Source: a virus. Taken from it: a stretch of 53,713 bases of DNA. The stretch spans positions 1 through 53,713 of the IMG/VR virus record IMGVR_UViG_3300012200_000003, one strand, 5' to 3'. Shown here piece after piece: positions 1 through 47,745 of this stretch (positions are counted from its first letter, which is position 1; every line of letters starts with the position of its first letter). The notes beneath the pieces were generated by a model. The model was not told where the DNA came from. It did not search any database and saw only the letters and a list, made by a program, of their open reading frames with translations. The translations under genes and the position numbers were made by a program.

Positions 1-123
1 AGCCATGATGAAACATATAAGTAATCCACATTCAAGTTGTAACTTGTGCATTATAAACTTTACAACAACTATAATGGTGGCAATTCTTCCTTCTTTATAA
101 GTACGACAAGCACTTTAAAGTTA
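1..123. repeat. Terminal direct repeat, copy 1 (identical to 53591..53713)
   Basis: Base-for-base identity of the first and last 123 nt of the window. This is either a genuine DTR or a circular-assembly overlap. Confidence 0.95.
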
Positions 124-143
124 CTGGCCACTTTCTTAATTTT

Positions 144-326
144 ATGAAATCTGAGATAATTATACGTGCCTGTGAAATAACGGAATTACACTATAAAAAT
201 ATTAATTTACCTCAATTTGCTCACGCATTTAAAATATTTCGTAAAGCAATAATTGTTTTAGAAAAAGAAGATGCAATAAAAGAAGAACAAATACACAATG
301 AAGCATTAGAAGGTTCTCAAGGATAA
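144..326 (+). CDS. Hypothetical small protein (60 aa)
   Basis: ORF in a tightly packed co-directional array; the next ORF starts 2 nt later. Confidence 0.45.
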   Translation: MKSEIIIRACEITELHYKNINLPQFAHAFKIFRKAIIVLEKEDAIKEEQIHNEALEGSQG

Positions 327-31481: not shown

Positions 31482-32027
31482 TCATAAAGAAGCTCCAAAA
31501 AGATTTAAAGCTAGTAAAGCATTACTTTCACAATTATCACAACGTTTATTTCTAGATTGCTCTTTTACCGTAGCCCATCTAATATTTAACTTCCAGTTAT
31601 TTTCTTTACACTCATCACATTGGCCACAAGAATAATTTCCGTTTACTAAAATTCTATCAAGAGATTTATCTTTAGGCTTTTCTCCTAAAATAGAAATAAA
31701 ATTTAAGACAGAACCCTTTAAAAATTTACATACTTGAATTCCACGGCCTCCATAATTTTTATAGTATAAACTATTTGAATTCTTACATCTATCTTTCATA
31801 TTAGACCAACAACTCCAAGTTGGAGTTCCATAAAATCCATGAACTTCATTCCTAGGATTAAAGCATCCACATGACTTAGTTTTACCTGCCCTTAAACTAA
31901 GACCTCGTATAATTTTAACATTACCACAATCACACTTACATTTCCATAACCTCCCATAAATATCTCTTCCAGATTTACCAATAACTAATAACTTCCCATA
32001 TCTATTACCAATCTCATTCTTATACAT
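31482..32027 (-). CDS. Cys-rich HNH-related (LDRI..NGNY...RWAT..EQ..N type) homing-endonuclease-like protein, paralogue of 35204..35836
   Basis: Start moved to Met22 (MYKNEIGNRYGKLLVIG), which overlaps the terminase stop by 8 nt. Motifs: WKCKCDCG, SCGC, YKNYGGRGIQVC, SLDRILVNGNY..NIRWATVKEQSRNKR. Confidence 0.6.
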   Translation of the reverse strand: MYKNEIGNRYGKLLVIGKSGRDIYGRLWKCKCDCGNVKIIRGLSLRAGKTKSCGCFNPRNEVHGFYGTPTWSCWSNMKDRCKNSNSLYYKNYGGRGIQVCKFLKGSVLNFISILGEKPKDKSLDRILVNGNYSCGQCDECKENNWKLNIRWATVKEQSRNKRCDNCESNALLALNLFGASL

Positions 32028-33738
32028 AATTATATTTACTATTCTTTTTTGTTTTATGTCCAGTAATAATACTAAGTGAACCATGAGCATTTGTTTTCTT
32101 CCTTCTCTGTAATTTCATTCCATTCCAAGTTATTTGTTCTTCTATTTCTTCCGGAGTCATTTTAGTAGAGTCTTTTTCTACTTTAACAGATTCATCTTCT
32201 ATAAACTGATCTAAAAAATCTGATACTTTAATATTAGAAAATGCTAAAACAGCAGCATCAGCCCTATCAGGAGAATTTATTCCTTCAGCTATCATTTCAA
32301 GTTTGCTTTGTAAACAAAGCTTATCTATTCCTGCTGTGCTTTCTTTATACTTTCTACTTGCAAGTTGAGAATATAGTTTATCATCATCTAGAAGAATTAT
32401 TACTCCTTCTTCTACTAAACGAGAAAACTTACTCCATATTTCTGCACCTCTATTCCGAAATTGTTTTTTATTCTTAGCGGCGGACTGATTTAATACTCTA
32501 TTTATCATCCACTTCTTTTTACGTAAAATATCTATTACAGCTCTCCCCACGCCACCATCATCACCATATATGTATGGATGATCTTTAGGAATCTTAGCTT
32601 CAGATAGTTCTTTATCTATGAAATCAGCTAATAAAGTTGCATCTTTTATTCTACAAGTTTTTTGTTTAATTTGTTTATTTCCCTTAAAAATACTTACTAC
32701 AGACTCATCACCATTTGTAGAAAGAGCTATATCAATACCAATTCTTATTTCATTACCAAAAGATTTAATGAAATTTAGTTTAACTTTATTTCTTAATTTC
32801 TCAAGCCGTTCATGGGATAAAACATATTTCCCATCTATAAAAGTAAAAAGTGCGAGCCATTTACTTCTAAAGTGTGGATTAAATTCTCCAAGCTCTTTTA
32901 AATCTTCATCAAACTCATCTCTACTTTGATGAGGGCAATCAAAAAATGTTACACGTTTTTTATTTGGCCAATTGATAAAAGACTTATAAAAATCTCCAAT
33001 AGGGGCACCAGGAGTTGATACATTAATCCAATAATTAAAACCAGTACATCTACGTAAAGCTCTAAAGATTTCAGGAGCTACAGATTTTGCTTCATTCACA
33101 ATTATCGCCATTTCACTATTAGGTTCGAGTGGATGATAGCCTTCTGCTTTTCCTTCTTCATCTGTAGCAAATAGAATAATCTCAGAACCAGACAAATTAC
33201 AAACTATATGCCTTTTATTTACTTTTAAAATAAAAGCACCTAGATTGGCAAGAGACCAATTATTTATTCTTTCCGCAAGACCACTTATGTAAGCTTCTGT
33301 TTGATTTGTAAGTTGAACTCCCGAACTTGAAGTTATAATAACACGACTACGTATTTTTGTAAGAATAAACCAAAGAGAAAAGGGAGCAATAATAAAAGCA
33401 TCTTTACCAGAGCCATTTGCTGCACAAAGAGCAAATTTATGTGGATGTAAACTTGTAGATTTAACTCTACATAAAGATTCTCCTGTATCTATTTGCCAGG
33501 GATGAAGAATTACAGTTCCATTATTTATTTGTGGGTCAAAGAAAGCAAGAAGTTCTATTGATGTATCAAAACCTTCAAGGCGCTGCCAATTTTCATAGAT
33601 TCTTTCTGGTTTTTCATCATTAAAATACTCAGAATCTTTTTTATTTTCTCTGGCACTTTCCTTTTTAAAAGATTCATCTGCAGAGAGAGGAATTACTACT
33701 CTTTTGGCTTCAATTAAATCTGGATTTTCTAGTAACAT
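32020..33738 (-). CDS. Terminase large subunit
   Basis: Walker A-like CAANGSGKDAF; Walker B-like MAIIVNEAK. C-terminal nuclease-like acidic motifs (GIDIALSTNGDES, DDGGVG). Size and position fit. Confidence 0.75.
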   Translation of the reverse strand: MLLENPDLIEAKRVVIPLSADESFKKESARENKKDSEYFNDEKPERIYENWQRLEGFDTSIELLAFFDPQINNGTVILHPWQIDTGESLCRVKSTSLHPHKFALCAANGSGKDAFIIAPFSLWFILTKIRSRVIITSSSGVQLTNQTEAYISGLAERINNWSLANLGAFILKVNKRHIVCNLSGSEIILFATDEEGKAEGYHPLEPNSEMAIIVNEAKSVAPEIFRALRRCTGFNYWINVSTPGAPIGDFYKSFINWPNKKRVTFFDCPHQSRDEFDEDLKELGEFNPHFRSKWLALFTFIDGKYVLSHERLEKLRNKVKLNFIKSFGNEIRIGIDIALSTNGDESVVSIFKGNKQIKQKTCRIKDATLLADFIDKELSEAKIPKDHPYIYGDDGGVGRAVIDILRKKKWMINRVLNQSAAKNKKQFRNRGAEIWSKFSRLVEEGVIILLDDDKLYSQLASRKYKESTAGIDKLCLQSKLEMIAEGINSPDRADAAVLAFSNIKVSDFLDQFIEDESVKVEKDSTKMTPEEIEEQITWNGMKLQRRKKTNAHGSLSIITGHKTKKNSKYNYV

Positions 33739-33945
33739 TTATTTATTAATTGAATTCTTTTCTGTAATCTCCACAATATGTTCCGCATCAATAGTTCTAA
33801 CTATATTATCCGAGTCAATTACAACTAAAATTCCAATACCAATTGCTACAAAATCCATATGGGGAATCTCAATCTTATCTCCATTTGACAGCTTCAATGT
33901 AAAAGCTTTATTAGATTCTCTATGTCTAAACTGATTTAAATTCAT
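33739..33945 (-). CDS. Small beta-rich protein, paralogue family member 3 of 5
   Basis: AFTLKLSNGDKIEIPHMDFVAI...IVEITE matches the family pattern. The stop abuts the terminase start. Confidence 0.6.
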   Translation of the reverse strand: MNLNQFRHRESNKAFTLKLSNGDKIEIPHMDFVAIGIGILVVIDSDNIVRTIDAEHIVEITEKNSINK

Positions 33946-33950
33946 AAAAA

Positions 33951-34301
33951 TTACTCTAAAAATTCTTTTAATCCATCAACGATAGAAATAAAAAGAACAT
34001 CCTTTACTCTCTGCAATTCTGGCAATCTATCATATGGAACCATATTTGGATGCTCTTTCTTTTCTACATTTTTAATAGAACTATATTTCCATCCAGCTTG
34101 GAGTCTAATTTTTAACCATTCTGAATGATTTTCTTCTGCCGTCCCATGAGTATTTTTAAGACGAAATTTTACACCTGCTATAACATAATCTTTTTGCCAG
34201 TCTGGAGATTGTGACCAAAGAAACTGTGAAAAATCTCCTAAACTTTCACAATAAGCTTTATTAGCTTCGTGCGCAATTCTAGCTATGTCCTCTATTTTCA
34301 T
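33951..34301 (-). CDS. RyR-domain protein
   Basis: HSEWLKIRLQAGWKYSSIKNVEKKEHPNMVPYDRLPELQRVKD matches the bacterial/phage RyR-domain signature (W......GW.YG......K.HP.LVPY.ELPE..K..D), as recalled. Confidence 0.6.
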   Translation of the reverse strand: MKIEDIARIAHEANKAYCESLGDFSQFLWSQSPDWQKDYVIAGVKFRLKNTHGTAEENHSEWLKIRLQAGWKYSSIKNVEKKEHPNMVPYDRLPELQRVKDVLFISIVDGLKEFLE

Positions 34302-34744
34302 TCTGATTTTACAAGTTTTCTTCCACCATTTACATCATCTACTATTGAAGCACCGGGAACAAAACATAAAGCTTCACTTATATTTAATCCTTGTTGTGTT
34401 GTTACTTGAATAACACAGCCAACCCCATTTATTTGATATGCTTTAGTAGATTTCATCCAGTTTTCACTTTTAGAAGATGCTTTACATAGTAATTGAAAGC
34501 TATCACAATTACCAAACATCACAACATCAGTTACTTTAGTTGAAGAAACATCAATATTAGATACTATTTTAGGAGTTTCTACTGCTTTAACTGGTTCTAC
34601 TGGAATTTCTACTTTAGAAATTTCTTTTACTACCGGCGTCAGAACTTTAATAGGTTCTATTGGAATTACTACTTTAGTAATTGGAGCTTCCGTTTTAATT
34701 ATCGGAGCCGTTACTGGAATAATTACTGGAGTAGTTTCTTTCAT
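34298..34744 (-). CDS. Protein with a Pro/Val/Ile-rich repeat N-terminus (148 aa)
   Basis: PVIIPVTAPIIKTEAPITKVVIPIEPIKVLTPVVKEISKVEIPVEPVKAVETPK. First gene after the structured non-coding block. Confidence 0.55.
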   Translation of the reverse strand: MKETTPVIIPVTAPIIKTEAPITKVVIPIEPIKVLTPVVKEISKVEIPVEPVKAVETPKIVSNIDVSSTKVTDVVMFGNCDSFQLLCKASSKSENWMKSTKAYQINGVGCVIQVTTQQGLNISEALCFVPGASIVDDVNGGRKLVKSE

Positions 34745-34848
34745 AAAAAGTTTTTAGTCTCCATTACTTATCACAAGATAAGAATTAAAAATGCACTCAA
34801 CTCCTCCTGGGAATTTTTATTTTCAATCATCTGGAGACTAAATTAATA

Positions 34849-34859
34849 TTCTGTCATAG
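34849..34859 (-). repeat. 11-mer CTATGACAGAA, copy a (inverted on the plus strand)
   Basis: Plus strand reads TTCTGTCATAG. Flank conservation extends to about 17 nt (..AATATTCTGTCATAG). Confidence 0.8.
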
Positions 34860-34960
34860 TTTTCTACACAAGTAAAAATCAAACCTGAAACAGACGCCAA
34901 AAATTCTAGGAAAAGCGAAACATAAAACTAGAATTATTTAGTATTTTCAGTCTATTTGAC

Positions 34961-34971
34961 CTATGACAGAA
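34961..34971 (+). repeat. 11-mer CTATGACAGAA, copy b
   Basis: Exact 11-mer followed by ATTAA. Confidence 0.8.
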
Positions 34972-35168
34972 ATTAAAGTGAGTATGATACTTTATCATGG
35001 AGGTATTTACAACCATAAGATAAGTATTTTATCTAATTAAACATACTCACTAATTGAGGAACTCTATAAAGTCACCGCGAGAGACTGTGAATCAGGTCGC
35101 TTGTGAGAACCTTAATTTAATCCCTTTATCGCTATCTATAGAGTTCCAAATTATTATTTCCAATTAAG

Positions 35169-35179
35169 CTCGCGCGCAG
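35169..35179. repeat. GC-rich inverted repeat arm CTCGCGCGCAG
   Basis: Its reverse complement CTGCGCGCGAG matches 36305..36315 (CCGCGCGCGAG) at 10 of 11 positions. The two arms bracket the two-gene cassette 35204..36258. Confidence 0.6.
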
Positions 35180-35203
35180 AAATTTTAATAATAAATTCTT
35201 CAT

Positions 35204-35836
35204 TTATAATATAAAGACCGGGTTTTCTAGTATATCCTTGTGTTTTAATGCAAGATCATAGGTAGATATATCTACACCCAGAATTTCTATTCTTGTCGGT
35301 CTTCTATTATTAGCTTGATTTTTCCAAGTATCCCATTTAATATTTAATTCCCATCCATTTTTTAAACATTCTTCACATTTACCACAAGTGTAACCTTTAT
35401 CATTGTTAATTCTTTCTATACTATATTTTTTAGATGGCCTATATCCAATAACAGAAGTAAAATTATCAGGTGATTGTGCTATAAATTGGCAAACATTAAT
35501 TCCTCTTCTTCCATAATTTTTATACTGTTCATTATTTTCATTTTGACATCTACCTACCATTGAATTCCATACATTATACTCAGGAAAATAACTCATCCCA
35601 TGAATTTCCTTAAATCCACACCTACAACCACAAGATTCTGAACCTCCATTTAATAATGAACGTTCTCTTATGGAAGATTCTTTACCACAAGAACATTTGC
35701 ATAACCAATAATATACAGATAAATATCTCCAATCTATAAAATCTGAACGCCAGATTTTTTCTTTAACAATCTTATCCAATTTAATGACAATAAGATTACC
35801 AAAAATACGTCCTGTTAAATCTATTTTCTTTTTCAT
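35204..35836 (-). CDS. Cys-rich HNH-related homing-endonuclease-like protein, paralogue of 31482..32027
   Basis: Shares WLCKCSCG, SCGC, YKNYGRRGINVC and SIERINNDKGY..NIKWDTWKNQANNRR with the paralogue. Confidence 0.6.
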   Translation of the reverse strand: MKKKIDLTGRIFGNLIVIKLDKIVKEKIWRSDFIDWRYLSVYYWLCKCSCGKESSIRERSLLNGGSESCGCRCGFKEIHGMSYFPEYNVWNSMVGRCQNENNEQYKNYGRRGINVCQFIAQSPDNFTSVIGYRPSKKYSIERINNDKGYTCGKCEECLKNGWELNIKWDTWKNQANNRRPTRIEILGVDISTYDLALKHKDILENPVFIL

Positions 35837-36258
35837 TCACTTAAGTGTTTTACTTCTGTTGGGATATCAATTATCTTATTTTTACCTTGCTCTATAGCCT
35901 TCTTGGCAGCTAACATTTGATCGTTAATAAGATTCACATTAATATTCAACATTTTTAATGATTGAGTATTATTCCTTCCCAAATTCTCGTAAAGAATAAA
36001 TTTAGCAGCTTTATAGCTTACATTGTCTTTTTCAGACCAAACTAAACTAGACATTCTAGCCTTGGCCATAGCAAATTCATCATCTGTAAAAAGAGATGGA
36101 TTCTTTTTAGAATCTTTTCTAAATTTGCTACTAGAACTTATTAAAACCATCTTAACCGACTCCTCTTCAAGTCCAAGAGCTTCCGCAATCTGAATAGGCT
36201 CCATATCAGACTGTTCGTATAATTCTGTTATCTGCGCATTTAACATTTCTTTATTCAT
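35833..36258 (-). CDS. HTH-containing protein (possible small terminase subunit or regulator)
   Basis: N-terminal HTH-like segment EPIQIAEALGLEEESVKMVL. First gene of the leftward arm, downstream of promoter P7. Confidence 0.45.
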   Translation of the reverse strand: MNKEMLNAQITELYEQSDMEPIQIAEALGLEEESVKMVLISSSSKFRKDSKKNPSLFTDDEFAMAKARMSSLVWSEKDNVSYKAAKFILYENLGRNNTQSLKMLNINVNLINDQMLAAKKAIEQGKNKIIDIPTEVKHLSE

Positions 36259-36259
36259 G

Positions 36260-36270
36260 CTATGACAGAA
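36260..36270 (+). repeat. 11-mer CTATGACAGAA, copy c (abuts the start codon of 35833..36258 on the minus strand)
   Basis: Exact 11-mer followed by TTAAT. Confidence 0.8.
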
Positions 36271-36304
36271 TTAATTCCATCATCTTACTTCGTAATACTA
36301 TATT

Positions 36305-36315
36305 CCGCGCGCGAG
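36305..36315. repeat. GC-rich inverted repeat arm CCGCGCGCGAG
   Basis: Partner of 35169..35179. GCGCGCG is very rare in this AT-rich genome. Confidence 0.6.
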
Positions 36316-36374
36316 AACTTAGTTTATCTATTAAATTTTTCACTCTAATTCTCTATAGAAAACAAGTAATAGTA

Positions 36375-36389
36375 GCAGATTCTGTGCCA
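36375..36389 (-). promoter_or_regulatory. Sigma-54 (-24/-12) promoter P7, head of the leftward arm
   Basis: Minus strand reads aaCTGGCACAGAATCTGCTACTAT. 117 nt upstream of the ATG at 36258. Confidence 0.7.
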
Positions 36390-36558
36390 GTTATTTAAAC
36401 TTTTATGTTTTAGAAAATGTTATACTGGAGTAAGGATTTTTTAATAGGGAAATTGTGAGAATAGCAGTAGTCGGTTTTCATTTTATTTCGTATTCGATTT
36501 CCAATGTTATATGAAACTAACATTCTTAGTCTCAACTAATAATCTTAGATGAAACTAT

Positions 36559-36615
36559 AGTTAGTAAGTACTCACTTACTTTCCTGGGCACTAAGTTAGT
36601 AAGTACTCACTTACT
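36559..36615. repeat. Two 22-bp direct repeats AGTTAGTAAGTACTCACTTACT (period 35 bp), each internally palindromic
   Basis: Copies at 36559..36580 and 36594..36615. Each has inner arms AGTAAGT / ACTTACT. Confidence 0.85.
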
Positions 36616-36622
36616 ATATAGA

Positions 36623-36670
36623 TAGTCAACTACTAATGACCAGGCTTTAATAGTTAACTAGTCAACTACT
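36623..36670. repeat. Two 12-bp direct repeats TAGTCAACTACT (period 36 bp)
   Basis: Copies at 36623..36634 and 36659..36670. Confidence 0.8.
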
Positions 36671-36827
36671 GTCCATGTCCTAAATCTGGACTGTCTCAAA
36701 ACTGGAATAAAACTAGACACTCAATGTATTGCATTTGCAGTGCGTTTGCATTACATTTCACTGGGTGAATATACCAAATACACCACCTGTAGTAGCATAG
36801 CAGGTCTATGTATACCATATATTGTGT

Positions 36828-36842
36828 TGGCACGCGAATTGC
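36828..36842 (+). promoter_or_regulatory. Sigma-54 (-24/-12) promoter P1
   Basis: tgTTGGCACGCGAATTGCATATAG, with GG-N10-GC spacing exact. 202 nt upstream of the ATG at 37044. Confidence 0.75.
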
Positions 36843-37043
36843 ATATAGTAACTTGGAGTTCGTCAGTGTGAACTAAGGAGCACACTCCAACGTCCTCTTG
36901 TTAACTTGGACTACATAGTGTCCAAGGTGCCACAGTCCAGAATGCGTGTGTTATTTTGGATTGGCGAAGCGTAAATTTGCTTATGTAGTGCCAAGTTGAA
37001 TCCTCAAAGCAAAGGACGAAAGTCCACAACCTAGAAGGAAACA

Positions 37044-37589
37044 ATGGAAACCCTACAAGTAGAGCAGAAGGAAAGTAACATCTATGAAACTTTCCGTGAT
37101 GCTATCAAAGCAACCGTTTATGCAACTGTTGTGAAAGTCCGTAATACTTCAACGTCATTTAATTGGAGTGTCGGCAAAGTAATAAGTGCTTGTGCGGAAG
37201 CGTGCAATCTTCCTATTACAAACACGCCAGCGGACTTTAAGCGAATAGTCAAATTTGAGTTTGACAAGCTTAAACACAACATTGCCCAAAACAGTAGCTA
37301 TGAACTCAAGCGTTCACGAGAAGACTTCATATTGAGTGATGGAACAATGCTTGGCCGTTTAACAAACGTGCATACTAAGTTCATTGAGCTTGAAACTCAA
37401 CTTCTTGAAGCATCCAAGATGTATTCACGTCTTGGAGTTAAGATGACTGATGAAACTCTATCCTCTGAGAAACGTTCAGCAATACGCAAACGTATGAATA
37501 AGCTTGTGGTTGTTCAAGACCACGTAAGAGCTGAAATCGCACGTCAAGCAGTATTAGTTGCTGAAGCTAATCAGACTGCCACAAGTTAA
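37044..37589 (+). CDS. Hypothetical protein (181 aa), probably highly expressed, monocistronic
   Basis: Preceded by promoter P1 plus a 200-nt leader and followed by a strong terminator. Markedly higher G+C than its neighbours. Confidence 0.65.
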   Translation: METLQVEQKESNIYETFRDAIKATVYATVVKVRNTSTSFNWSVGKVISACAEACNLPITNTPADFKRIVKFEFDKLKHNIAQNSSYELKRSREDFILSDGTMLGRLTNVHTKFIELETQLLEASKMYSRLGVKMTDETLSSEKRSAIRKRMNKLVVVQDHVRAEIARQAVLVAEANQTATS

Positions 37590-37599
37590 CAAAAGCAAG

Positions 37600-37635
37600 T
37601 CCTCTGGATTATTATATTCAGAGGATTTTGTTTTG
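37600..37635 (+). terminator. Rho-independent terminator after 37044..37589
   Basis: TCCTCTG-N12-CAGAGGA followed by TTTTGTTTTG. Confidence 0.75.
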
Positions 37636-37661
37636 TTAATTCGCGTTAGATAGTAAAGACC

Positions 37662-37679
37662 TTAAGAATCTATTCTTAA
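37662..37679. promoter_or_regulatory. 18-bp palindrome TTAAGAAT-CT-ATTCTTAA (candidate operator)
   Basis: Perfect 8-bp arms. A third TTAAGAAT half-site lies at 37751..37758. Confidence 0.4.
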
Positions 37680-37937
37680 ATGTCTAATCAGAATTATCAT
37701 TCCATAGCTTAAATGTATAAATCTAGCGCGCGTGTGTCGTCTAGTTTCATTTAAGAATTAGTTTGTTTATTGGTAAGAAAGCAAACTTATGCCTAAACAA
37801 ATCTTATCTCTTTTCGTAATGAGCGAGGCTAAGATAACAGTTTCTGAAGGAATAAACAAAATTCCGTCTAAAAATCTAGACGATAAACACAATCCAGGAT
37901 GAAATGTTATAGAGTAGCATCCAAGATAATAAAATCT

Positions 37938-37952
37938 TGGCACGTTTCTTGC
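37938..37952 (+). promoter_or_regulatory. Sigma-54 (-24/-12) promoter P2
   Basis: tcTTGGCACGTTTCTTGCTCCACT. 30 nt upstream of the ATG at 37982. Confidence 0.75.
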
Positions 37953-37981
37953 TCCACTTAGTAATCCTGGACATTTAATTT

Positions 37982-38176
37982 ATGACAAAAGAACAAAAAC
38001 TAACAGAACAGTTTAATACTTTAACAGAATCTATTAAAGATTTTATTAAAGCATGTCCAGAATTTCCTGAAGGATTTGAATTAGTTAAAAGAATTGGAAT
38101 CAACGTAGCTAATGTAGAAACTACCCTTCACTGGGAATTTAATTGTTTAGAATTAGGAGTTTTTTTTTCAAAATAA
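37982..38176 (+). CDS. Hypothetical protein (64 aa)
   Basis: 30 nt downstream of promoter P2. Confidence 0.5.
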   Translation: MTKEQKLTEQFNTLTESIKDFIKACPEFPEGFELVKRIGINVANVETTLHWEFNCLELGVFFSK

Positions 38177-38273
38177 AAAGGAGAGTTTGTGTTTCAATTT
38201 TTAATGTTTAATGAATTTATGAAGGATTTCTAATATTTTCTATGCTTGTTACCTTCATATACATGAATATACT

Positions 38274-38300
38274 TATATATATATATATATATATATATAT
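38274..38300. repeat. (TA)n microsatellite, about 13 units
   Basis: Uninterrupted TATATA... run of 27 nt. Confidence 0.95.
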
Positions 38301-38346
38301 AAGACAAAAAAAGAGCATTCCCCCTTTCCAATATAAGGAGTAATAA

Positions 38347-38396
38347 GAAAACAAACAAAAGTAATTGAAAACAAACAAAAGTAATAAGAAAACAAG
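38347..38396. repeat. Tandem ~20-bp repeat GAAAACAAACAAAAGTAAT, two full copies plus a partial third copy (iteron-like)
   Basis: Copies at 38347..38365 and 38367..38385, plus a partial copy at 38388..38396. Confidence 0.85.
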
Positions 38397-38629
38397 AATT
38401 TTCTTAGAAAATATAATTAAAGAAATAAAAAAGACAAAAATTCTACCTTTGATAAATCTAGCTAACAGCGGAAAAGAACAAATTAAGTTGAGGTCACAAT
38501 ATGGTCTAACTCAAGATCGGGTGTCTTTAATCAAATATTAACTTAGAAAGTTCCTATCAGTGATATTCTAAATCTAATATTTACAACTTTACTGTTTAAC
38601 CCAATCACCTAATTACAAATAACCTATAA

Positions 38630-38644
38630 GCATTTTTCGTGCCA
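38630..38644 (-). promoter_or_regulatory. Sigma-54 (-24/-12) promoter P6 (orphan; fires into a non-coding region)
   Basis: Minus strand reads gcTTGGCACGAAAAATGCTTATAG. No ORF of 60 aa or more lies downstream on that strand. Confidence 0.6.
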
Positions 38645-38659
38645 AGCTAAAATAAACAT

Positions 38660-46704: not shown

Positions 46705-46913
46705 AAGCTGAAGATATATTATTTAATAGTTTATGTGAGTTGTTTGAATGGCAAGAAGGAATTACTCTAGGAGGCAGATATTGGTGTTGCGATGATAAGA
46801 TAATACATTCAAAAGAGGAACTATGTGAATATTTATTTAATGAAATAAGAATTATTAAACAAAAAAAAATAGAACTCCAAAAAGAATTAATTTTATTAAA
46901 ATATGGCAAATAA
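46668..46913 (+). CDS. Hypothetical protein (81 aa)
   Basis: ORF track; overlaps its neighbours. Confidence 0.4.
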   Translation: MDVGNNRSLCMLKAEDILFNSLCELFEWQEGITLGGRYWCCDDKIIHSKEELCEYLFNEIRIIKQKKIELQKELILLKYGK

Positions 46914-47745
46914 TAATGAAAGTCTAAAAGCTCTAGCATCACAAGCTAAGCTTGATCCAGCATTCAGAAAAATGCTTATAGAATCTGGTAATGAATCTCT
47001 AGTAAGAGACTTAGATGAAGTTTCAGATAAAACAAATACAGAAGTTTGGTTAAATAAGTTTATTACAAACAATTCTAAAATGATAGAATTAAAAGAACAT
47101 GTTAGAAAATTAGCCCCATTAAATGATCCAATTTTGATATTTGGTGAGACTGGAACAGGAAAAGAATTACTTGCTCATGCTCTTCACGGCGAACGTAAAG
47201 GAAAATTTATAGCAATTAATTGTGCTGGTTTACCAGAACATCTTGTAGAATCTGAATTATTTGGGCATGATAAGAATTCTTTTACTGGTGCTCTTAAAGA
47301 TAAAACTGGATTAATGGAAGAAGCACAAGATGGAACTATTTTTCTGGATGAAATAGGTGATCTAGCTATGCCAATGCAAGCTAAATTATTAAGAGCAATA
47401 CAGGAGAAGAAAATAAGAAAAGTAGGTTCTAATGAAGAGCGTCTTATAAACTGTAGAGTTGTAAGTGCTACACATAGAGATTTAGAATTTTGGGTTCAGC
47501 TTGATAAATTTAGAGAAGACCTTTTCTATCGGATTTCTACTTTTATACTTAAGCCATCAAGTTTAAAACAAAGAAGTGGCGACATAAGTAAAATTATAGA
47601 ATCTTTAGATAAAGAAGAACAAGAAATTGAAGATTATGAAGAGTTTTCATCTTTAATTGATCCTAGTAAATTGAGTGGCAATGTTAGAAGTCTCCAGCAA
47701 ATCTATAGAAGATATATAATCTTAGGAACAAAACCACACGAATAG
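46903..47745 (+). CDS. Sigma-54-dependent transcriptional activator homologue (bEBP AAA+ core only; no receiver domain, no C-terminal HTH)
   Basis: Walker A GETGTGKE; GAFTGA-loop region ESELFGHDKNSFTGA; Walker B TIFLDEIGD; QAKLLRAIQEKKIRKVGS; RVVSATHRDL; FREDLFYRIS; sensor II GNVRSLQQ. The protein ends 16 aa after sensor II. Confidence 0.85.
   Translation: MANNNESLKALASQAKLDPAFRKMLIESGNESLVRDLDEVSDKTNTEVWLNKFITNNSKMIELKEHVRKLAPLNDPILIFGETGTGKELLAHALHGERKGKFIAINCAGLPEHLVESELFGHDKNSFTGALKDKTGLMEEAQDGTIFLDEIGDLAMPMQAKLLRAIQEKKIRKVGSNEERLINCRVVSATHRDLEFWVQLDKFREDLFYRISTFILKPSSLKQRSGDISKIIESLDKEEQEIEDYEEFSSLIDPSKLSGNVRSLQQIYRRYIILGTKPHE

Follow-up and report, generated by a model that had tools for sequence, protein, structure and literature searches.

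Small structured RNAs that lie head to tail and come from one precursor are known from the tRNA region of phage T4, with its species 1 and 2 RNAs, and pairing between the distant ends of a transcribed unit is known from the RNase III stems of rRNA operons, where leader pairs with trailer, and from the early intercistronic stems of T7. The locus described here has features of both. It is a gap of 459 bases (34745-35203) in the genome of a phage known from metagenome assemblies only; the window, as we call the whole stretch of DNA analysed (53,713 nucleotides), was assembled as a circle of ~53.6 kb, its ends overlapping by 123 nt, and another assembly starts at a different point, the assemblies being circularly permuted. 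As in T4, small structured RNAs follow one another across short spacers in a variable accessory region and are predicted to share one precursor, and in one relative the same array holds a real tRNA. Unlike the tRNA clusters of phages, the window has no tRNA among its four modules, and each module pairs its own leader with its own trailer over 10-13 bp, a pairing that tRNA clusters lack. The resemblance to RNase III stems lies in the long-range pairing of unit ends between the cistrons of a polycistronic transcript; the differences are that here four units follow one another without a gene between them, that they contain three-way junctions and conserved loops, and that their cleavage is putative. 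The closest parallel to how the array would work is a cluster of phage tRNA genes to which further stable RNAs and leader-trailer stems of the rRNA-operon type have been added.

Two further kinds of phage RNA invite comparison. The pRNA of phi29 recalls the locus in being a phage RNA of ~120 nt with paired termini, a three-way junction and a position near packaging genes, but there is no match to the Rfam pRNA model, and the phage studied here has a classical large terminase, which needs no pRNA. GOLLD and ROOL are likewise structured non-coding RNAs of phages, often found beside tRNAs; they are single RNAs of 500-800 nt, whereas the gap contains independent modules that occur in different combinations in different phages and match nothing in Rfam. 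A literature search found no paper describing such an array of closed modules, and neither the RNA families nor their closed-module tiling seems to have been described before.

The gap holds only two mechanical open reading frames (36 and 37 aa) and belongs to an arm of minus-strand genes running from ~36258 down to 7076. A sequence-only reading of the window had placed it upstream of the packaging and structural operon. It lies instead inside the operon, among accessory genes that come before the packaging genes, since two genes of the same strand precede it: a 141-aa gene (35833-36258), the first of the operon, and an HNH endonuclease gene (35204-35836; phrog_374, E = 2.5e-33), which overlaps the 141-aa gene by 4 nt, as an ordinary operon member, and stands directly upstream of the array. 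The best homologue of this HNH protein is 37-44% identical and none is close. On the other side, the gene starting at 34744 had been taken for the first of the structural arm; it encodes a 148-aa homologue of the Lockin anti-defence sponges (34298-34744; PF26760 recorded for its product), and its ATG stands 8 nt past the end of the last module. Lockin proteins are anti-Thoeris sponges with which phages sequester the Thoeris signal 3'cADPR (bioRxiv 10.1101/2025.07.12.664507). The homologue in the window has a 58-aa N-terminal extension of proline- and valine-rich repeats, at the DNA level three copies of a unit of ~54-60 nt, which the ~97-aa Lockin homologues of other phages lack. There follow, all on the minus strand, an RyR-domain gene (33951-34301), a 68-aa gene (33739-33945), the large terminase gene (32020-33738; product 25-32% identical to annotated terminases) and a second HNH gene (31482-32090, also phrog_374), which overlaps the 3' end of the terminase gene; the two paralogous HNH genes thus bracket the accessory-to-terminase region.

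All four perfect inverted repeats that had been reported for the gap are present. In module A (repeat I7), 34753-63 pairs with 34832-42 (11 bp enclosing 68 nt); in B (I1 and I7-type), 34849-59 with 34961-71 (11 bp, 101 nt); in C (I11), 34977-86 with 35042-51 (10 bp, 55 nt); and in D (I8), 35058-68 with 35137-47 (11 bp, 68 nt). Together they tile 34753-35147, with linkers of 6, 5 and 6 nt. An AT-rich sequence of 54 kb yields isolated 10-bp repeats by chance, and the window contains 40 repeat domains against 17.9 +/- 4.0 in 200 block shuffles, but tiled chains of three or more are absent from the shuffles: the longest chain is four in the window, and the shuffles reached two in 12 of 200 cases and never three, which bears out the earlier judgement that the gap does not look like random sequence. 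Folding of both strands, proposed in the same reading as a check, put the gap well below its shuffled controls, with -121 kcal/mol for the minus strand (z = -5.7) and -99.8 kcal/mol for the plus strand (z = -4.5), and the single modules on the minus strand gave z = -4.0 (D), -4.8 (C), -4.4 (B) and -4.6 (A). Evaluating the fold of one strand in mirror image on the other gave unusable energies, with non-standard pairs scored leniently. As predicted by these folds, the gap is a set of four independently folding RNA modules on the minus, or gene, strand, and the structured RNA that had been suspected on the transcribed strand is real.

Module B (34849..34971, minus strand, 123 nt) is predicted to form a three-way junction with an 11-bp P1, a long P2 hairpin that ends in a pyrimidine-rich apical loop (~34910-34927), and a P3 hairpin with a C-UUGU-G loop (34862-34877), followed by J3/1. 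Module A (34753..34842, minus strand, 90 nt) is a shortened paralogue of B without the upper part of P2; its P1 again has 11 bp, its apical region includes AGGAGGAG, and its P3, CUUAUC-UUGU-GAUAAG (34767-34782), is followed by a J3/1 of UAA. A covariance model, R1, was seeded with B (110.7 bits) and with copies from two relatives (L006 4224-4357; L023 776-903). It picks up a copy in a third relative (L013 795-928, E = 6e-12), with hits on the gene strand only, and it matches A at E = 9e-5 or 1.5e-5 (39.3 bits); a further model, R3, gives A 70.5 bits, a score by construction, A being one of its seeds. In the small alignment of five B and A sequences from related phages, which was fitted to the model, standard pairs fill 94% of the cells against 36-54% when the partners are slid, and 24 of the 32 pairs have changes on both sides, values reached by none of 500 shuffles. 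P1 can be read directly, the sequences differing at most positions and always being complementary, and all five have a G.U pair at the base of P2. The conserved unpaired parts in R1 are the linker aaUUu, GG(A/U)CU, GGUUUUCU...UUUCC, CUUGUG and UAAC, and the conserved apical loop is a pyrimidine-rich single strand of 18-26 nt. Defined by its P1 closing stem, a P2 with the GGUUUUCU...UUUCC loop, a P3 with C-UUGU-G and a J3/1 of UAAC, the B type includes both B and A of the window, on the gene strand upstream of the terminase gene. By inspection only, L014 4253-4392 (B') and L004 5876-6004 (B'') are more distant kin with the same type of apical loop and a different P3, the L004 copy lying directly upstream of the terminase gene. 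From these alignments we conclude that B and A belong to one three-way-junction RNA family, which three related phages share with the window.

Module D (35058..35147, minus strand, 90 nt; 88.7 bits with model R2) has an 11-bp closing stem around an inner hairpin, with a conserved AUAGCGA(Y)AAAGG on its 5' side and CUCGCGGUGACUU on its 3' side. R2 finds homologues at L014 4166-4249, L003 4992-5083 and L110 1110-1192, and no further member beyond these four; AUAGCGAYAAAGG and CUCGCGGUGACUU recur in L014 (4169-4246) and, more loosely, in L003 (4995-5080) and L110 (1113-1189). The four members score 55-89 bits on the forward strand against 24-29 bits on the reverse. The window copy has all the features by which we define the D type (a P1 of 11-13 bp, AUAGC(G/U)A, the inner hairpin and G(U/A)GA(A)CUU); it is one of the four seeds of R2 and matches by construction, and the independent support comes from its P1, where compensatory changes affect 6 of the 9 pairs in register and no pair is broken. 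Covariation between the window and L014 is seen in the inner helix as well. Three of the four modules, B, A and D, thus show the covariation that had been proposed as a check on the stems. Module C (34977..35051, minus strand, 75 nt), with a 10-bp closing stem and an inner hairpin with ...UACCUCCAUGA..., is an orphan, for which blastn and nhmmer found no homologue in any fetched locus and whose backing is its own thermodynamics. Searches of the same loci with the whole gap returned one match of 29 nt, a similarity of C to L020 that we reject as chance, antisense within a 569-aa reading frame. Compared as DNA, the four modules show no mutual alignment beyond the kinship of B and A.

The linkers, written as minus-strand RNA, are UAUUAA between B and A (34843..34848), UUAAU (34972-34976) and UCAAUU (35052-35057); they are AU-rich, and linkers of the same kind occur in relatives (UAUUAA in L006, UUAAUU in L014). 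From the HNH stop codon to D there is a 56-nt spacer (35148..35203) with a weak AU hairpin around UUCUGCGCGCGAG, no stabler than its shuffles (z = +0.5). A separate GC-rich inverted repeat of 13 nt (35171-35183 / 36303-36315; CTCGCGCGCAGAA / TTCCGCGCGCGAG) exactly brackets the 141-aa and HNH genes and, as minus-strand RNA, would form 12 Watson-Crick pairs and one G.U pair across 1.1 kb. The repeat shows no conservation among relatives. GCGCGC has a third site at 37726, and by our own estimate ~0.6 occurrences of GCGCGC would be expected in this genome of 30% GC, which has five.

This bracketing of two upstream genes, the length and perfection of the closing stems, and the place of the array between cistrons of a single operon would all suit simple intercistronic processing or decay barriers, that is, substrates for a double-strand-specific nuclease or blocks to exonucleases that make the stability of the downstream mRNA independent of that of the upstream one (141-aa and HNH genes), in the manner of T7 RNase III sites and REP elements, with RNAs that have no function of their own. 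We regard this as unlikely. Four different modules in a row exceed what a barrier needs, and in the alignments it is loops and junctions (GGUUUUCU...UUUCC, C-UUGU-G, UAAC, AUAGCGA and GGUGACUU) that are conserved across phages while the stems vary, which points to specific recognition of the loops.

The strand on which conservation operates bears on another proposal, that the repeats mark a DNA-level site such as pac, cos or a replication origin, or a small mobile DNA with terminal inverted repeats. The perfect arms are symmetrical between strands, as such a site would have them, and the array adjoins an HNH endonuclease gene and has the terminase gene ~1 kb away, as is known for HNH-dependent cos phages. 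Conservation is nevertheless strand-specific: the invariant G.U pair would be a C.A mismatch on the other strand, the minus-strand fold contains 16 G.U pairs against 5 in the plus-strand fold, and the models score 2-4 times higher on the gene strand. Moreover, close relatives whose terminases are of the same family either have none of these sequences or bear a different set of modules, no extra copies were found elsewhere in the genome, and a better candidate for an origin, with iteron-like repeats, is available at 36259-37043. A role of the gap as pac, cos or origin, which the sequence-only reading had listed among its options, is for these reasons very improbable.

The same reading had also credited the phage with almost no other intergenic space, which overlooks large non-coding stretches at 36259-37043, 37590-37981 and 38177-38659. 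The first, 785 nt long, separates divergent genes, is higher in GC and contains iteron-like direct repeats, namely two copies of GTTAGTAAGTACTCACTTACT (near 36560 and 36595) and two of AGTCAACTACT; these features make it a candidate for an origin or for a regulatory role. Non-coding sequence is strongly structured in a second place, 37590-38060 (z = -6.6 for the plus and -5.6 for the minus strand), where two tiled closed hairpins (37672-37758 and 37762-37860) have a terminator-like hairpin on one side (37597-37628) and a match to the sigma-54 promoter on the other (37938); none of the models R1-R3 matches this block. At 38270-38400, in a non-coding stretch of 483 nt, a (TA)n run precedes a series of AAACAAACAAAAGTAAT repeats.

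Metagenomes contain hundreds of relatives of the terminase, many of them on contigs of ~54 kb, and a set of loci around such relatives was fetched. Tiled closed hairpins, in chains of two or three, occur at 9 distinct loci, against 0-1 in shuffles (593 kb). L006, with a terminase 73% identical, carries three tiled modules on the terminase strand, closed by stems of 10, 11 and 11 bp. They sit in a gap of 389 nt that is flanked by genes for DUF5662 and receiver-domain proteins and precedes the terminase gene by ~360 nt. The middle one encloses a true tRNA (Rfam, 55.7 bits; also called by ARAGORN), whose acceptor stem is extended by leader-trailer pairing out to the 11-bp closing stem, in a slot equivalent to those of the window's modules. 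This tRNA (L006 4118-4190) has an unusual anticodon loop of 8 nt, CAUUCAGA, for which ARAGORN gives the anticodon 'ttca', and it is a candidate suppressor of opal codons or of frameshifts. L033 is a more distant relative whose array is on the opposite strand, ~4.7 kb ahead of the terminase gene. It has two adjacent tRNA-like RNAs (64-324, minus strand) with standard D and T arms and closing stems of 12 and 14 bp, in which a long hairpin replaces the anticodon arm; ARAGORN calls neither. One of these closed modules reaches 34.6 bits with the tRNA model, which passes the Rfam threshold; its acceptor stem is extended to 12 bp and its anticodon arm has a 46-nt insert. The presence of tRNA and tRNA-like RNAs inside closed modules suggests that in these phages the closing stem is a packaging device for small RNA genes.

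Read in the direction of transcription, the arrays are D-C-B-A in the window, D-B' in L014, E-tRNA-B in L006 and E-D in both L003 and L110; L013 has two other closed hairpins and then B, L023 has B alone, then a terminator-like hairpin with a U tract and then a gene, and L004 has B'' only. E is a third candidate family, found in L003, L110 and L006, absent from the window and recognised by eye only; MAFFT alignments of the E-type modules and of the second module of L014 were poor. Wherever E, D and B co-occur they are colinear, and in the relatives that carry them the arrays share the strand of the terminase gene, precede it by 0.1-1.5 kb and fall between called genes. A single RNA of ~400 nt, as had been envisaged, does not fit modules that occur in such different combinations among relatives, and the arrangement looks like an array that is inherited, eroding and growing, unlike either one RNA or a set of freely shuffled cassettes. 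When IMG/VR was scanned for the D and B motifs, the patterns matched only the known contig or, by chance, coding and GC-rich DNA, and a scan of GTDB genomes with the terminase alignment yielded two distant loci, with modules in neither.

That no promoter stands beside the array, and that it is reached by read-through, had already been argued; this holds for the gap, and the source of transcription needs revising. The gap has no sigma-54-type site and no match to a Bacteroidota-type promoter, and its sigma-70-like matches are weak (9/12) and no commoner than in shuffled sequence. About 115 nt ahead of the 141-aa gene, however, stands TGGCACAGAATCTGCT (36374..36389, minus strand, read from 36389 to 36374), with one mismatch to the sigma-54 consensus TGGCAC-N5-TTGCW. 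The site is kept in relatives, six of which have TGGCAY-N5-WTGCT ahead of their homologue of the 141-aa gene (TTGCT in four, ATGCT in two), and a similar match (YTGCT) precedes a late gene of ~430 aa in five. Throughout the window the consensus has four perfect matches and several with one mismatch, and at two mismatches or fewer it occurs 31 times against 12.7 +/- 3.4 in shuffles; perfect or near-perfect matches (36828, 37938, 40239 and 47956 on the plus strand; 36389-36374, 27131-27116 and 38644-38629 on the minus strand) precede several operons. The phage also encodes the AAA+ domain of a sigma-54 activator (46903-47745, plus strand; PF00158, E = 6e-60). These matches suggest that its gene expression depends on host sigma-54. 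With no sigma-54-type site in the gap, one ahead of the 141-aa gene, and no promoter-like or terminator-like site splitting the array, we infer that the array is most likely transcribed as part of the operon transcript from the sigma-54-type promoter.

Comparison with described elements gave no identification. ARAGORN called no tRNA gene in the window, and a search over 34600-35350 gave none at E values up to 10. Rfam 15, whose models cover riboswitches, ribozymes, pRNA, group I introns, HEARO, GOLLD and ROOL among others, matches nothing in the whole window at gathering thresholds, and at E values up to 10 the gap shows noise only (best 22 bits against a cut-off of 76), in keeping with the earlier failure to match it to any RNA family. 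The INPHARED phage collection contains no similar DNA by blastn, and a scan of 33500-38500 for intrinsic terminators found none within 34745-35203. A group I intron with its homing endonuclease was rejected: there is no intron model match, the HNH gene is an ordinary operon member, and the 141-aa and Lockin genes that flank the array are separate genes in relatives. A mobile unit of HNH gene plus RNA was set aside, the HNH gene having no close homologue, as was repeated mobile DNA of the MITE or REP kind, since R1-R3 find no further copy in the 53.7-kb window, and as was an RNA leader tied to Lockin, since Lockin homologues in IMG/VR have no such gap upstream. For antisense action of the loops, the phage genome offers no target of 14 nt or more, only AT-rich matches of 10-13 nt.

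The same searches bear on the idea that at least one module is a self-cleaving ribozyme of an undescribed class that cuts the polycistronic transcript. The modules would suit this, being compact junction RNAs that have conserved unpaired nucleotides and are tiled along a phage operon, and mixed tandem ribozymes are known from phage-like regions; yet no Rfam ribozyme matches even at E values up to 10, and inspection of B and A by eye revealed no hammerhead-type core in either. We consider it a long shot.

The reading that we prefer, to which we give a probability of roughly 0.5, is a co-transcribed tandem array of small RNAs that are released from the operon transcript and have an accessory role in trans. 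Modules D, C, B and A would be transcribed with the operon, from the 141-aa gene through the terminase and structural genes, and the long pairing of 5' and 3' ends would close each module and insulate its fold from its neighbours. Cuts in the short, AU-rich, single-stranded linkers (UAUUAA, UUAAU, UCAAUU) would then free each module as a blunt-ended, exonuclease-resistant RNA of ~75-125 nt, and the released RNAs would act in trans, in host takeover, counter-defence or the control of expression. The families of fixed order (E, D and B) would have been inherited in the phage clade, with gains in single lineages, such as C and the duplicate of B here and the tRNA in a relative. The analysis shows the closed structures, their strand, the homology and covariation of B, A and D, the conserved place upstream of the terminase gene and the equivalence of the slot with one that holds a tRNA; transcription from the sigma-54-type promoter, cleavage in the linkers and accessory action in trans are proposals.

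Counted against this reading is the position of the B family, and it is here that the main rival enters, namely that the RNAs, and above all those of the B family, are a leader acting in cis: a processive antitermination RNA, a stabiliser of the 5' end left by processing, or a platform for translation initiation, which would gate or boost expression of the accessory and packaging genes that follow. For the B family, the processing or antitermination platform suggested in the sequence-only reading lives on in this rival. Modules of the B type invariably come last among the RNAs, before protein-coding genes, and lie upstream of the terminase gene in every case, and in the window, where A is the last, as in L006, the module ends 8 nt before the next ATG, which fits a role in cis at least as well. 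The conserved pyrimidine-rich loop offers a single strand of 18-26 nt, and in L023 the B module is directly followed by an intrinsic-terminator-like hairpin with a U tract and then by a gene. The processive antitermination RNAs put, of HK022, and EAR are comparable in this respect, being of ~70-130 nt, with covarying stems and a position ahead of long late operons; they differ in that neither sequence nor models match, in that the array lies 1.1-1.6 kb downstream of its promoter and not next to it, and in that tRNA-type neighbours would not be expected of them. A leader leaves unexplained why equivalent closed slots hold tRNA and tRNA-like RNAs, perfect closing stems of 11 bp make poor switches, the window's array is followed by no terminator, and L003 and L110 carry D and E without B. 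We hold a role in cis to be rather unlikely, though likelier than any other rival.

Returning to the release of small RNAs from the array, its neighbourhood allows a guess at what they do. The genes for Lockin, RyR-domain, receiver-domain and DUF5662 proteins that accompany the arrays, together with an AcrVA2-like Pfam hit in L109, make host takeover or counter-defence a reasonable guess by association; the gene with the AcrVA2-like hit is at the far end of the L109 locus and on the opposite strand. Taken further, the array could be an RNA accessory arsenal, several RNA classes outside Rfam carried on protective closing stems beside protein counter-defence genes, with at least one of them a decoy or mimic for a host nuclease or immune sensor, or a new self-cleaving ribozyme. 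This extended version is speculative and, as a whole, rather improbable.

This study has identified at least two covariation-supported RNA families (B/A and D) outside Rfam, in an uncultured clade of phages of ~54 kb. The manner in which their small RNAs are packed is unusual, each with its own long leader-trailer stem and tiled with linkers of 5-6 nt. A slot able to hold a tRNA links the array to the tRNA biology of phages, and its position beside a known counter-defence gene raises the possibility that phages of this clade may carry counter-defence factors made of RNA.
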